The notes under the pieces: generated by a model
Told to the model about the DNA's origin: nothing
Seen by the model: the letters and a program-made list of their open reading frames with translations, nothing else
Database searches by the model: none
In this document: one piece after another, positions 54,295 through 63,127 of the stretch
How the letters are laid out: each line of letters opens with the position of its first letter
Numbering within the stretch: the stretch's first letter is position 1
Program-made: the position numbers and the translations under genes
Sequence record: NC_018859.1
From: Escherichia phage ECBP2
Reading direction: 5' to 3' (one strand)
DNA length: 64,000 nt

Positions 54295-54370
54295 TGGTGC
54301 ACCCTACAGGATTCGAACCTGTAACCAACGACTTAGAAGGTCGCTGCTCTATCCATTGAGCTAAGGGTGC
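54295..54370 (-). tRNA. tRNA-Arg(UCU): tRNA-Arg, anticodon UCU, CCA encoded
   Basis: Minus strand folds as a 76 nt cloverleaf: GCACCCT TA GCTC AATGGATA GAGC A GCGAC CTTCTAA GTCGT TGGTT ACAGG TTCGAAT CCTGT AGGGTGC ACCA. Confidence 0.9.
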
Positions 54371-59797: not shown

Positions 59798-60697
59798 TTA
59801 TGCTGCCTGACGTGCTGCCATAATCTCAGCCGCTTTACGCAATACTTCTTCCTCTTCTTCTTTCGCAGCTTGTTCGGTACGGGTAGCAACCGTTGAAGAG
59901 ATACGACCGCGCAGGCTTTCTAACTTCTCCTGCATTTTGGCAATGGTGGATTCCATTTCATCGGCATACGAATCCAGTGATTCCAGTTCCTTGCTTGATG
60001 CGTTCATCAGATAATCATCAGAGATCGCTACCGTTGAAGCCGTGACTTTCTTGATGAGTGAGTCAAAAGACTTCTTAACCTTGCCTACTTCTTCACTCAG
60101 GGCAATAGTATTATCACTGGTAGCGCCGTTACGTTCATCAGCCAATAATTTTGCTTCAATACGGATTGCATTTAAGCGTTCAACCAAAGCGTAAATATCT
60201 TGGTTAAAATCTTCCTTGTTTTTCGCCGGGATTTGCAGGTGTGCCGCCACGTTGTCATTGCAACCCTTGTAAAAGTTAGGGTTATCTACTTCAATTTCAC
60301 GACCTAACGCAAAGTTTTCGAAAGCGTTCGACCAGCGAGCGCGATTCTGTTCCATTTTGGCCTTAATTTGCGCTTCTTTCGCATCTTCTTTCGCTTTCGC
60401 TTCACCTTCCAGATTAATCCACTTTTTACGACCGTTTGCCGCATCGGTGTTAAACTTGACAGGAGTCAGGAAAGTGATTGCAGTGGCGATCACATCCATA
60501 TCACGAAAACGCTCGGTTAACAGAAAATCGACCGCCGCCTGCAATACGTCTAACTTTTTACCGTTGCTGCGGAAGTGCTGCAAATGACCTAACAGAAAAT
60601 TAGAAACATCTTGCTTAATCGCCGCGTTATTGCTACGAATGTTGTTAGCCAGTGCGTTAAAACCAGACTCTTTTACCAGATTAAAAATTTTAGCCAT
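59798..60697 (-). CDS. First gene downstream of the promoter region: acidic coiled-coil protein
   Basis: ATG at 60697 follows AAAGGTGA. 299 aa; the C-terminal half is helical and E/K/A-rich. Confidence 0.55.
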   Translation of the reverse strand: MAKIFNLVKESGFNALANNIRSNNAAIKQDVSNFLLGHLQHFRSNGKKLDVLQAAVDFLLTERFRDMDVIATAITFLTPVKFNTDAANGRKKWINLEGEAKAKEDAKEAQIKAKMEQNRARWSNAFENFALGREIEVDNPNFYKGCNDNVAAHLQIPAKNKEDFNQDIYALVERLNAIRIEAKLLADERNGATSDNTIALSEEVGKVKKSFDSLIKKVTASTVAISDDYLMNASSKELESLDSYADEMESTIAKMQEKLESLRGRISSTVATRTEQAAKEEEEEVLRKAAEIMAARQAA

Positions 60698-60763
60698 GAT
60701 ATTCACCTTTCAATTGTAAGGGCACTATGCCCCGCTCTCTATGAGCTTTTTAAGTCGCCATTG

Positions 60764-60840
60764 ACTTATCAATATCCACTCATTGTTAAGTAATTATTGA
60801 TAAGTGGGGCGGTCTTATCAGAAGTTAACCTTGCCGCCCC
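60764..60840. promoter_or_regulatory. Perfect 11-bp inverted repeat (ACTTATCAATA / TATTGATAAGT, 20-bp spacer) abutting a 7-bp GC stem (GGGGCGG / CCGCCCC)
   Basis: Read directly: arms at 60764-60774 and 60795-60805, GC stem at 60806-60812 and 60834-60840. Lies 70-140 nt upstream of the ATG at 60697. Confidence 0.4.
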
Positions 60841-61618
60841 TTTATCTGTGATGTTTCATCTGGTATCTTTAATTAGTCGCTATAAACGAAGCCGACCTGA
60901 TAGCGATGATCAATCATCACAATAAGGCAGTGCGTCCGACTCTAATTAGTTACTTTATTGTAACCGTCGGCAATATCGTCTACTTTGCTTTCGCTCTCGC
61001 CTATCCTTTTATACTAACTCTCAATCGCTAACCATCGCCCACTACGGGAGGTTATTGCGAAAGAGTCATTAGCCGTCTAATATTCCGACGTTTTATATCT
61101 TTCGGCAAGTTTACTACATAACCCGACTATGTACTTTCATCTTATGATGAATCTCAAGCCGTTCACATCGTAAACGTTCACACTAAACCTTATTGTTAAA
61201 TAGCAATTTGCCACTTTTTAACCACTCCCCGCCGCTCTCAATTGAGCGTTAATTCGTCGGACTTGCCTACCCTGATTAACTTCTTTCACTGTAGCACCAT
61301 GTTAGCGATGGCCGCCGCTACCCTTAACCGTGGGCGATTAGCTTAAGCCTTTGCGTGTACTCAATGAATCCGTTTATCAGTGGTGACTTTTCCAGTAAGG
61401 GAATGTAAAACTGTTTACCCTGATATTTTAGGGAGTTTTACGCCGTTTTATCTGGTATGCTGTCCGATGGTTATTATCTTCCAGCATATTTAACCGATAT
61501 AGGAGAATGTTTAAATTGTTAAAGAGCGGTAAATCTATCAACGTGCTTTCTCACGTTATGCAACTGTTAGCCGTTGTTACGCTTTTCACTGAAGCGGTGA
61601 TTTGCTCAAGTGATGCTC

Positions 61619-61647
61619 ATTATGGACCATGTTGTTTTTGCCGTCAA
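61619..61647 (-). promoter_or_regulatory. Sigma70-type promoter P2 with A-tract UP element
   Basis: Minus strand reads GAAAAAGATTAAAAAAGTGA TTGACG -17 nt- CATAAT GAGCAT. Confidence 0.65.
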
Positions 61648-61921
61648 TCACTTTTTTAATCTTTTTCGTCGTTCCCGCTATTGGGAGGATATATCAACCC
61701 GCTTTATTGGGTTGAAGATTAAGCGATGAGGCTTAACCCATGATTCATATTGTTAAAGAGCGTTTAGCCTTTTATAGTGTCTGCTAATCACTACATCATT
61801 AAAGGCTTACTTGTTCATTAACGGGGCGCCTAAGCCCGAACTACCCGCTGCACTATGTGCCACCTTTCCCGCGATACGTTGATTTGGGAACTAGTTAACG
61901 TTGTTTTGTTAACTTGTGGTT

Positions 61922-61950
61922 AGTATGGACTACCTTAACCACGTTTGCAA
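61922..61950 (-). promoter_or_regulatory. Sigma70-type promoter P3 with A-tract UP element
   Basis: Minus strand reads GATGATAAAAAAGAGG TTGCAA -17 nt- CATACT. Confidence 0.55.
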
Positions 61951-62250
61951 CCTCTTTTTTATCATCTTCTTTTATTCTTTTCCCTTATCTCGCGTGAATC
62001 TATGCGAAAGGGCAAGATGATAAGTCTGATTTGTCTTTTAGGAATCTAGTGCGCTTTCAAGCATTGACCATTTGAAAGTATCGAACAAATGAGGCTTATT
62101 TTGTTGCTCATCGTCCGCATGTTCACGTATGAATCAGGAATCAATTCTAGTGGTCAACTAAGCGCCTTATAGTAATGACGTTCCCGCCACCTGTAAGACA
62201 AATCATATTTTTAAAGAGCGGGATTTTTCAAGTCATCGCTGACTATGCTC

Positions 62251-62279
62251 ACTATATATCAGGCTTTTTCCGGTGTCAA
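62251..62279 (-). promoter_or_regulatory. Sigma70-type promoter P1 with A-tract UP element
   Basis: Minus strand reads GAAAATACTTGAAAAAGAGTA TTGACA -17 nt- TATAGT GAGCAT. Confidence 0.7.
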
Positions 62280-62376
62280 TACTCTTTTTCAAGTATTTTC
62301 ACTTTCTAGCCTGATTTTTAAAGAGCGGGGCAATTTCTTGCCTTGTATGTTTTACATCGTACCCGATGAAATGAAG

Positions 62377-62385
62377 TATACATTA
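62377..62385 (-). promoter_or_regulatory. TAATGTATA motif inside the ORF-free region
   Basis: Minus strand reads GATTAATGTATACTTC. Confidence 0.4.
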
Positions 62386-62557
62386 ATCAGATGAGGTTGC
62401 AATAGGGTAAAGCAAATTATTTTAAACTTTTTCACTATAGGGAGGTAAAAGAGCGGGCGCACGTGATACATCATAGGAAACGGCTTGTAAAGCGATAAAA
62501 AGCGGCCTGAAACGCACTGTAGCGAGCTAAAAGGGAGTAAGGTATACAATCACCTTA

Positions 62558-62585
62558 GAAAAGAAAAAAGCCTCATAGCGAGGCT
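62558..62585 (-). terminator. Rho-independent terminator
   Basis: Minus strand reads AGCCTC-GCTAT-GAGGCT followed by TTTTTTCTTTT. Confidence 0.75.
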
Positions 62586-62597
62586 TATAAGAAGGGT

Positions 62598-62678
62598 TTA
62601 AAACATCAGATAGATTATGACCATAGGCATGACCACGGCACAATAAAGAAGGAAGATCAGTCCTATGGATTTAAGCAT
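62598..62678 (-). CDS. Hydrophobic micro-peptide (26 aa)
   Basis: Reads MLKSIGLIFLLYCAVVMPMVIIYLMF. The start overlaps the stop of the upstream micro-ORF. A terminator follows. Confidence 0.3.
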   Translation of the reverse strand: MLKSIGLIFLLYCAVVMPMVIIYLMF

Positions 62679-62772
62679 TACCCATAGCCGATAGTAAAAC
62701 ACCCAGCAGGAGAACGACCAGAAAAAACCCTACAACCGTTTTAATGATGAATTTAATAAACCACATAGCCAT
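62671..62772 (-). CDS. Hydrophobic micro-peptide (33 aa)
   Basis: SD AAGAGG lies 4 nt before the ATG. Reads MAMWFIKFIIKTVVGFFLVVLLLGVLLSAMGNA. Confidence 0.35.
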   Translation of the reverse strand: MAMWFIKFIIKTVVGFFLVVLLLGVLLSAMGNA

Positions 62773-62860
62773 AAACCTCTTTAATTAAAGGATGTAAGAA
62801 TAAAGCATATCAGCGACGAATAACGCCACTGTAACGACGAATAAGCACCGCCAAAAATAA

Positions 62861-63127
62861 TCATTCCCCATTTATATCACCCTCAATCAGCCCATGATTT
62901 AGCAGGTTAGCAAGTGATAATCCACCGTCAAAATATATAGAACGAAAATCATCGCGGGTAATTTCAAAATCAGCAAAGGCTAGCCAATCTTTAAGAGGCT
63001 GATATTCCATCCTGCAAAAAGTGATAACAGGTAACGTTATCTGACCATCAAGTGTGTTAAACATGATAGATTGCTCGCCAACAAAACAAGAAAAGCCGTT
63101 TGATAATTTAACTTCTTTAATAGCCAT
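62861..63127 (-). CDS. Hypothetical protein
   Basis: SD TGGAG. 88 aa. Confidence 0.5.
   Translation of the reverse strand: MAIKEVKLSNGFSCFVGEQSIMFNTLDGQITLPVITFCRMEYQPLKDWLAFADFEITRDDFRSIYFDGGLSLANLLNHGLIEGDINGE

Follow-up and report, generated by a model that had tools for sequence, protein, structure and literature searches.

Why should a phage genome otherwise packed with genes keep, directly ahead of its first early gene, 1.9 kb in which no gene can be recognized? The question is raised by positions 60698 to 62597 of the 64,000-nucleotide (nt) stretch of Escherichia phage ECBP2 that we analyzed (sequence record NC_018859.1; here called the window). We propose that this region is probably the launch pad of the main early operon, built like an Escherichia coli rRNA (rrn) operon and operating by Nus antitermination through a functional structured leader. 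The phiEco32-like phages are a model for phage reprogramming of the E. coli RNA polymerase (by the sigma factor gp36 and by gp79) and are common therapy candidates, and the head of their early operon has hitherto passed for an empty spacer containing three promoters. The matches to the region comprise about 97 records of Escherichia/Shigella phages in the phiEco32 group (Gordonclarkvirinae: Kuravirus, Nieuwekanaalvirus, and Suseptimavirus), the nearest relative being KBNP1711 with 96.4% identity over the 1.9 kb; on sequence grounds, the source phage is a phiEco32-like podophage. Genes 124 and 125 flank the homologous stretch in phiEco32 itself, at 72787-74730 of 77554. The flanking genes in the window both read leftward, and its minus strand is thus the sense strand.

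Promoter-boxA modules on the sense strand

On reading the sense strand of the region, we saw the string CGCTCTTTAA(A/C)AAT four times. This motif corresponds to boxA in the leader of the E. coli rrn operons, where TGCTCTTTAACAA lies about 145 nt upstream of an annotated 16S gene; across 5426 E. coli genomes, this leader segment has a median of 7 copies per genome. A search of both strands of the 64 kb with GCTCTTTAAMAAT, an rrn-type boxA pattern tolerating A or C at position 10, recovered four exact copies, at 62314-62326, 62207-62219, 61749-61761, and 61515-61527 (boxA-1 to boxA-4, respectively), all on the minus strand, and no further exact copy anywhere in the window. When up to two mismatches were allowed, the window held 16 matches, a number reached by none of 100 shuffles. 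The boxA core GCUCUUUAACAA is exact in boxA-3 and boxA-4, and boxA-1 and boxA-2 have an A for the C at position 10. A degenerate fifth copy, GCTATTTAACAAT (61204-61192, minus strand, one mismatch), lends its 3′ half to the closing helix of an RNA domain described below (domain II), and because it is paired in the predicted fold, its status as a true boxA is doubtful.

The array recurs throughout the group. In all 17 relatives and metagenome copies scanned, four or five boxA copies lie on the sense strand of the gene-free region, and none was found elsewhere in their 4- to 7-kb loci. Mapping of these 17 phages revealed a repeating module, consisting of an UP element, a consensus promoter, the sequence GAGCAC, a small hairpin, and boxA, of which each genome has two to five; the modules are followed by a constant part made up of boxA-3, the promoter P2, boxA-4, and about 830 nt. 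The distance from the −35 hexamer to boxA is about 45 to 120 nt in all of the mapped phages, with no ORF (open reading frame) between the two and with start sites as predicted. Each boxA of the window lies downstream of a promoter (candidate P0, P1, P3, and P2, in that order) and is preceded by a predicted hairpin of 5 to 7 base pairs (bp). The hairpins are themselves under constraint. The one ahead of boxA-2 shows a compensatory change, being AGTCA/TGACT in the window and ATTCA/TGAAT in phiEco32 and 4E8; the one that starts 1 to 6 nt past the predicted P2 start is kept in 18 of 18 sequence variants despite substitutions and indels; and the boxB-like hairpin ahead of boxA-4 (helix 8 of the fold) has three compensatory pairs, one of them with four pair types. 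The exact boxA-4 that follows it is invariant in a 24-sequence alignment except at position 10. No boxA was found after the promoter of the small operon lying upstream, the RNA of which is translated from about 40 nt past the start, and its absence where RNA is translated at once fits a role of boxA tied to untranslated RNA.

The preliminary description of this DNA, made from its letters and an ORF list, had read three tandem minus-strand sigma70 promoters with UP elements here. Its P1 and P2 stand as near-consensus promoters: with the scores given in Table 1 and spacers within the 16- to 18-bp range, both were recovered by a promoter scan, both are conserved, and both are listed for phage SU10, P1 at the position of SU10 promoter 73996 and P2 as the equivalent of promoter 73511. 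Relatives carry versions of P1 that score 11 to 12 of 12, and P2 scores 11/12 in most of them, its −35, −10, and A-tract columns being invariant or nearly so in the 24-sequence alignment. The A-tracts described in the UP position can likewise be read directly ahead of all three promoters (AAAAAGAGT for P1, AAAAAAGTG for P2, and AAAAAAGAG for P3), 1 to 2 nt 5′ of the −35 hexamers and A-rich in each case; the consensus of the proximal UP subsite is reportedly AAAAAARNR, from work of Estrem et al. in 1999. Sites scoring at least 10/12 number only 17 in the 128 kb formed by both strands of the window, and among these best promoter-like sites P1 and P2 have the highest upstream A+T fraction (0.77) and, as had been noted, the same GAGCAT after their −10 hexamers. 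The third promoter, P3, stands only in part. Its site and A-tract are conserved, and relatives have a strong promoter there behind the same A-tract, scoring 10 to 12 of 12 (TTGACA-16-TAGAAT in SU7, PAS59, and EK010, or SU10 promoter 73668), but the version in the window is weak, with a score of 8/12 that lies below the pick-up of the scan. A likely fourth promoter, the candidate P0, which the preliminary description lacks, would feed boxA-1; phiEco32, SU10, EK010, and Paul have TTGACA-16-TAATAT (10/12) ahead of their first boxA. A further scan match, at 62231-62202, overlaps boxA-2 and is probably spurious. P2, the last of the promoters, lies about 915 nt from the first ATG, and the scan found no terminator-like site between P2 and the ATG at 60697.

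The S2 Table of the SU10 paper (PMC4281155) gives three spacer promoters with their sequences as early sigma70 promoters, "like phage phiEco32". Two of these are P1 and P2 of the window and the remaining one is homologous to P3 by position, so that the tandem-promoter part of our analysis is a rediscovery of what had been published for SU10 and phiEco32. The boxA array appears to be an addition to these promoters: no mention of boxA, an antitermination signal, or a structured RNA at this place was found in the phiEco32, SU10, and 7-11 literature searched, which excluded the primary phiEco32 papers (Savalia 2008; Pavlova 2012).

Promoter-like sites as such are not enriched in the region (13 found versus 11.8 ± 3.0 expected in shuffles), and the case for the promoters rests on match quality, strand, conservation, and literature; relatives have two to five promoters scoring 10 to 12 of 12 at matching places. 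The same count is what one would expect of a nonfunctional spacer in which promoter- and boxA-like strings had arisen by chance. Such a spacer is effectively refuted by the clustering of the exact boxA copies on one strand, with a motif count in the window above that of every shuffle, by the conservation of boxA in every relative scanned, by the published promoters, and by the conservation across 24 sequences, equal to that of coding sequence, and the 82 compensatory pairs to which we now turn.

A conserved and folded leader RNA

For comparative analysis of the RNA, we drew on phage records, IMG/VR, and metagenomes, which together yielded 24 distinct sequences. A metagenome scan with a 19-mer gave 29 loci, of which 8 were true relatives and the others chance matches, and a search of IMG/VR guided by the gp124 protein gave only four near-identical genomes. 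In an alignment of 11 phages, the approximately 1.07 kb from boxA-3 to the ATG of gene 124 is co-linear and 85 to 98% identical, and the mean column identity across the 24 sequences is 86%. When the window is set against more divergent genomes, the leader is at least as conserved as the adjacent coding sequence, with identities for leader and gene 124 of 90.8% versus 76.1% in SU7, 87.6% versus 78.3% in EK010, and 89.8% versus 76.4% in TH43.

The RNAalifold consensus of these sequences comprises 272 pairs in 46 helices. As controls, we slid the pairing partners by 1 to 3 columns and made 500 shuffles. Standard pairs fill 98.9% of the cells (32 to 46% in the slid controls) and 82 of the 272 pairs show compensatory change, compared with 7 to 12 in the slid controls and 38.7 ± 3.2 in the shuffles, none of which reached the observed pairing measures. 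Several pairs occur as three or four pair types, indicating that the changes do not go back to one inherited event. G·U cells number 694 against 24 A·C cells, a bias that identifies the folded molecule as the minus-strand transcript rather than its complement or the DNA. Compensation above the controls and strand specificity, as required of a conserved structured RNA in general, were thus both found. The preliminary description had spoken of an intervening RNA full of 6- to 8-bp stems, which understates this covariation-supported fold, and its suggestion that the leader is itself functional receives strong support from the structure and the conservation of the RNA.

The fold is organized around the boxA elements, with closing helices that begin 0 to 3 nt past boxA-2, boxA-3, and boxA-4. 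Domain A, whose closing helix starts 3 nt past boxA-2, is present in about 42 related phages and, at 73% identity, in the unrelated phage PJNS034, where its closing helix has two compensatory pairs. In domain I, the closing helix (helix 10) has three covarying pairs and helices 12, 15, 17, and 18 have four to five each. Domain II is closed by an interrupted long-range helix of about 24 bp (helices 25 to 27) with six covarying pairs, and its helices 29 and 30 have eight and six, respectively. The 3′ hairpins that follow include GGGGCGG...CCGCCCC (60840-60806), which has no U-tract, and GGGC-AUAGU-GCCC (60732-60718), and beyond them both the start codon of the first early gene (ATG, 60697) and its Shine-Dalgarno sequence (AAAGGUG, 60710-60704) are unpaired. 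A candidate helix between the flank of boxA-4 and the Shine-Dalgarno sequence of gene 124, 870 nt apart (helix 9), shows no covariation and is broken in TH42 and TH43, and we do not propose translational control through it. Separately, the invariant AUACCAGAU(A/G)AAAC occurs twice in the leader (61445-61458 and 60853-60866, minus strand) and is 87 to 92% complementary to codons 4 to 8 of gene 124 (60674-60688); as it has no compensatory variation, long-range pairing with the coding start is unproven.

A search of the leader against Rfam, which the preliminary description had called for, gave no family. For no family, including 6S, group I/II introns, GOLLD, ROOL, OLE, and riboswitches, was a match above the gathering threshold found in the region, the only hit in the whole window being a tRNA at 54298-54370, and when matches at E ≤ 5 were admitted over 60500-62700, the best had E values of 1.6 or more and lay far below threshold. 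ARAGORN found no tRNA or transfer-messenger RNA in the region. The region has no similarity to any of the 5426 E. coli genomes, from which it follows that the RNA body is not a copy of a host RNA. The large structured noncoding RNAs GOLLD, ROOL, and OLE were discovered by comparative genomics, and some of them are phage borne. Like them, the RNA described here spans hundreds of nucleotides, has many covarying helices, lacks coding capacity, and has no assigned biochemical role, but they are stand-alone genes found mostly in Firmicutes and their phages, whereas the present RNA is the 5′ part of a coliphage mRNA and is tied to boxA. This covariation-supported RNA of about 0.9 to 1.1 kb, absent from Rfam, seems to be undescribed in the accessible literature, and among publications pairing "phiEco32" with "non-coding" we found no title or abstract concerned with the region.

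Could hidden small protein genes explain the conservation instead? The preliminary description had drawn attention to a large ORF-poor region, and this proved right: nowhere else does the window go as far without an ORF of at least 70 amino acids (aa) on either strand as at 60707-62860, which measures 2154 nt against 558 nt for the second longest such stretch. Its statement that no minus-strand ORF exceeds about 20 codons does not hold literally, since mechanical ORFs of 65 aa (TTG start, 62549), 37, 32, and 31 aa are present on that strand and ORFs of 21 to 65 aa occur on both; what does hold is that no ORF of at least 25 aa, on either strand, is kept in all 24 distinct relatives. There is something to be said for small genes, in that antisense ORFs of at least 25 aa share one alignment end column in 17 to 19 of the 24 sequences and the SU7/PAS59/TH42 group has a truly conserved gene of 66 to 79 aa in the upstream half of the region. 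On the other side, the 96%-identical KBNP1711 has only a disrupted form of the window's 65-aa ORF, the substitutions track base-pair partners and not codons, and most annotators called no coding sequence here, as judged from the approximately 97 related records. We reject small ORFs as an account of the conserved part, and hidden genes as the cause of the conservation are highly improbable.

The covariation bears also on a role of the region mainly at the level of DNA, as a transcription-activated origin, with an R-loop or primer as in ColE1 RNA II or the T7 primary origin, or as a packaging or genome-entry element. A primer RNA would likewise show RNA covariation, strong promoters in a large gene-free region are often the mark of an origin, and T7 uses its A1 to A3 promoters for transcription-driven DNA entry. 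The homologous region of phiEco32 is moreover end proximal, 2.8 to 4.8 kb from the genome end. It is not, however, at the physical end, from which four genes and a terminator separate it; the region contains no iterons, long direct or inverted DNA repeats, or A+T-rich unwinding block; boxA signals processive read-through and not primer formation; and the pairing is that of a strand-specific RNA. The suggestion in the preliminary description that the region doubles as an origin, packaging site, or genome end hence finds no positive support, and we consider a principal function of this kind quite unlikely.

Proposed Nus antitermination and possible roles of the RNA

Rho terminates untranslated RNA, and in the rrn operons boxA RNA, together with NusB/NusE, nucleates a NusA/NusG/SuhB complex that renders transcription Rho resistant. 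The region resembles an rrn operon in several respects. Its strong sigma70 promoters stand in tandem, each behind an A-tract UP element; a boxA with the identical core lies a few nt past a small hairpin, in the boxB-then-boxA order of rrn, with up to 18 identical nt (GCTCTTTAACAATTTATC) in the SU7 copy; and the product is long, untranslated, and highly structured, the 5′ strands of its closing helices adjoining boxA. This last feature matches a model proposed for the helix between 16S leader and trailer, according to which the polymerase retains the 5′ strand, tethered through boxA, up to the moment when the pairing partner has been transcribed. Unlike the rrn operons, the phage RNA body has no sequence or Rfam similarity to rRNA and runs straight into protein genes; no GU-rich element like boxC was identified in the region; and there is one boxA per promoter (four to five per region), whereas rrn has a single copy each in leader and spacer. 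Host loci offer a second parallel, as boxA shields long untranslated CRISPR transcripts from Rho (PMC7665894; see also PMC5725501, Baniulyte et al. 2017). There, too, a consensus boxA soon follows the promoter of an unusually long untranslated transcript, with Rho protection as the rationale, but it is a single boxA, and the CRISPR product is a repeat array and not a large folded RNA. The nut sites of phage lambda share with the window a boxA core (CGCUCUU) in an early phage transcript beside a small hairpin. In nut, however, boxB lies 3′ of boxA and binds N, and boxA is a weaker version; in the window, the hairpin is 5′ of a boxA with the full rrn consensus, and the sequence directly 3′ of boxA is not a boxB of the lambda type but forms the 5′ side of a long-range helix; no N-like protein is known, although no search for one was made.

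Among phages, the closest parallel is T7, to whose A1/A2/A3 early promoters the preliminary description had likened the tandem promoters, an analogy that turns out better than was supposed. An exact boxA (GCTCTTTAACAA) lies at 813-824 in T7, between the A3 start (750) and gene 0.3 (925), and a 15-mer covering the UP element and −35 hexamer (AAAAAGAGTATTGAC) is identical in T7 A1 and P1. The T7 boxA has presumably been noted before. Both phages have three tandem strong host promoters heading an early operon, untranslated leader RNAs, and an exact boxA between the last promoter and the first gene. They differ in that T7 has one boxA and a leader of 175 to 430 nt, compared with a boxA per promoter, about 915 nt to the ATG, and a covariation-supported fold in the window; the T7 leader is cut off at the RNase III site R0.3, and no such site is defined in the window. 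PJNS034, an unclassified coliphage of 65.7 kb, has a gene-free region of 1.8 kb (L008, 2372-4195) between divergent gene clusters, with three strong promoters (one scoring 12/12), an exact boxA after the first two and a one-mismatch copy (GACTCTTTAACAAT) after the third, and a leader of about 475 nt that is unrelated to that of the window outside its copy of domain A. A scan of the collection for alternating boxA and promoter elements (boxA-promoter-boxA) further recovered the T5-like Proteus phage Stubb, in the terminal-repeat/pre-early region of which (L056, 1-6176) four consensus sigma70 promoters (11 to 12 of 12), each with an exact boxA within about 45 nt, stand ahead of pre-early genes of the A1/dmp/A2 type. 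This last case suggests that the use of boxA in immediate-early phage transcription is widespread and under-described.

In the reading that we favor, the host sigma70 RNA polymerase would start at three or four tandem UP-element promoters (possibly P0, then P1, P3, and P2), and every transcript would carry at its 5′ end a small hairpin and, behind it, a boxA of rrn consensus. On the rrn analogy, the boxA RNA would bind NusB/NusE and nucleate a NusA/NusG/SuhB complex on the polymerase, such that polymerases from P0 to P2 would acquire the Nus complex at the first boxA that they transcribe and become Rho resistant. This resistance would be needed because the first 0.9 to 1.6 kb of the RNA are never translated; the modified polymerase would cross these and proceed through the long cluster of early genes that reads leftward. 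The boxA elements, which the preliminary description missed, may thus hold the key to how the untranslated RNA gets transcribed. The conserved RNA, running for about 830 nt after boxA-4 and for about 1.07 kb from boxA-3, is no spacer; it is organized in domains closed by long-range helices that start right past a boxA, an arrangement that would fit an rrn antitermination complex that chaperones long-range folding. The RNA itself is most likely a cis-acting 5′ module resistant to nucleases and Rho, possibly cut off like the T7 A1-A3 leader RNAs. The sequence elements, their conservation, and the fold are observations; from them we infer the loading of Nus factors, Rho resistance, processing, and the role of the RNA body.

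Several points weigh against this proposal. What it says of start sites, of read-through into gene 124, and of Nus dependence and Rho sensitivity is inference throughout. G is at least as frequent as C throughout the leader, in which no rut-like (Rho utilization) window with C in excess of G was found, and this composition together with the tight fold makes Rho loading there doubly disfavored. Composition and structure alone would then work against the loading of Rho, and boxA may matter more for the downstream genes, for folding, or for speed. Two of the four boxA copies end in AAAAAT and not AACAAT, and the fifth, degenerate copy is engaged in pairing. The related C3 phage 7-11, which infects Salmonella, has a gene-free head of about 1 kb at its right genome end (L059, 5865-6917) in which no boxA was found. 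A purely protective role in cis is not obviously in need of about 900 nt at near-constant length. Finally, the primary papers on phiEco32 (Savalia 2008; Pavlova 2012) may support or contradict parts of the proposal. As regards 7-11, a statement of its authors has it that the antitermination strategy "remains to be defined" (PMC8948821), a related unsolved question about early antitermination posed by a phage that is itself without boxA. The product of 7-11 gene 151, downstream of the gene-free head, starts with MAKLN..., comparable to the MAKIF... of gp124.

Alternatively, the structured RNA may act in trans, where, highly expressed and mimicking an rRNA operon or serving as a decoy, it would titrate host factors early in infection, or it may be processed into stable small RNAs with targets of their own. 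Candidate targets would be Nus factors and SuhB, ribosomal proteins, RNases, chaperones of the Hfq type, or an RNA-sensing defense, and boxA and the promoters would serve bulk RNA output. The size, constant length, and strong purifying selection of the RNA body beyond the apparent need of a protective leader speak for such a role, as do the several boxA copies per transcript, the several promoters and resulting nested transcripts, the movement of domain A as a module between unrelated phages, and the closure of each domain by a long-range helix of about 14 to 24 bp, as in rRNA precursors. The RNA has, on the other hand, no similarity to a host RNA or Rfam family, there is no terminator or recognizable processing site between it and gene 124, and no array of repeated protein-binding motifs was seen beyond boxA. 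Action in trans is a doubtful prospect. It is similarly unlikely that the RNA of about 1 kb represents a new class of large structured phage RNA that mimics the rRNA operon, is produced in bulk during the first minutes after infection, and acts in trans, where it might cripple the rRNA synthesis of the host by soaking up Nus factors, SuhB, or ribosome-assembly proteins or serve as a decoy for a defense that senses RNA or transcription. Were the mimic to prove real, the promoter-boxA cassette would be a general, overlooked immediate-early device of T7-like, T5-like, and phiEco32-like phages. For the RNA body, we thus rank a cis-acting 5′ module ahead of a decoy or rRNA-operon mimic in trans, this ahead of a replication primer or origin, and hidden small genes last.

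If boxA works as in rrn, as we favor, lytic phages would take over the ribosomal antitermination machinery without an N-like protein. Such a use of boxA would explain how their long early transcripts escape Rho, and the same trick would operate at the leading ends of T7 and T5-like genomes. The RNA of about 900 nt would take its place among the larger covariation-supported RNAs of unknown function; its location in an easily manipulated E. coli phage makes its role directly testable, and the repeated helix strands beside boxA offer a natural setting in which to examine the RNA-chaperone activity that has been proposed for the Nus complex. The tandem promoters were known from SU10 and phiEco32; judged by sequence, the boxA array, the large structured RNA, and the application by a lytic phage of rrn-type antitermination to a structured leader would be new.

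Feature map and flanking genes

Table 1. Features of the gene-free region, listed in the direction of transcription (window coordinates; promoter scores are matches to the 12 hexamer positions)
Feature	Position	Strand	Description
Intrinsic terminator	62558..62586	minus	8-bp stem AAGCCTCGCTATGAGGCTT, then T-run; annotated in SU10 and 4E8 and present in SU10 S2 Table
Candidate promoter P0	62375..62402	minus	TTGCAA-16-TATACT; 9/12; scan match; upstream of boxA-1
boxA-1	62314..62327	minus	CGCTCTTTAAAAAT; exact motif, also in relatives; predicted hairpin GGCAA-GAAA-TTGCC (62342-62329) ahead
P1 with UP-like A-tract	62251..62301	minus	GAAAAAGAGTA-TTGACA-17-TATAGT-GAGCAT; 11/12; hexamers 62279-62251; predicted start ~62244
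boxA-2	62207..62220	minus	CGCTCTTTAAAAAT; exact; ~+25 from P1 start; near-5′-terminal hairpin AGTCA-GCGA-TGACT (62243-62230) ahead
Domain A	62020..62205	minus	~185 nt; inverted repeat I4; RNAalifold on 10 sequences, 54 pairs, 7 compensatory
Conserved block, A-tract, and P3	61922..62013	minus	ACTTATCATCTTGCCC...GGGAA in all relatives; P3 at 61950-61922, TTGCAA-17-CATACT, 8/12
Insert between P3 and boxA-3	61775..61907	minus	~130-150 nt; from alignment; only in the window, KBNP1711, 4E8, and TH42
boxA-3	61749..61762	minus	CGCTCTTTAACAAT; exact; columns invariant in 24 sequences; start of the part constant in all relatives
P2 with UP-like A-tract	61619..61669	minus	TTAAAAAAGTGA-TTGACG-17-CATAAT-GAGCAT; 10/12; hexamers 61647-61619; predicted start ~61612-61614
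boxB-like hairpin and boxA-4	61515..61557	minus	NNNGUG-AGAAAG-CACNNN (61557-61540), 10-nt spacer, CGCTCTTTAACAAT (61528-61515)
Domain I	61216..61514	minus	~300 nt; helices 10-23; closing helix directly after boxA-4
Hairpin, GCTATTTAACAAT, and domain II	60918..61215	minus	Helices 24-37; domain II ~280 nt, 61195-60918
3′ hairpin run	60698..60917	minus	Helices 38-46; eight hairpins; five covarying pairs each in helices 41 and 43

The two halves of the region differ in character. In the alignment of 11 phages, the upstream half (62600-61770) consists of modules in mosaic arrangement and is interrupted by large indels, although the block carrying P3 within it keeps 92 to 95% column identity. This half behaves as a landing pad in which promoter-boxA modules, RNA domains, and small genes appear to have been gained and lost. 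The conserved gene of the SU7/PAS59/TH42 group, found there in SU7 at L004 3838-4038, has no counterpart in the window. The insert between P3 and boxA-3 is G+C rich and looks foldable, and it has no Rfam or tRNA match.

The intrinsic terminator forms the 5′ border of the gene-free region and closes the small early operon upstream, which consists of homologues of phiEco32 genes 128 to 125. Small early ORFs of 87 to 121 aa (phiEco32 genes 125 and 127, L002 3445-3810 and 4370-4633; window 62861-63127) are labeled "terminase" or "polymerase" in several records and in PHROGs (phrog_14176), labels that are implausible at this size and look like propagated annotation. At the other border, the gene 124 homologue that starts at the ATG at 60697 belongs to phrog_13018, a family with no assigned function. 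Elsewhere in the window, the sole feature recognized by Rfam and ARAGORN is a tRNA-Arg gene (anticodon TCT) at 54295-54370 on the minus strand.

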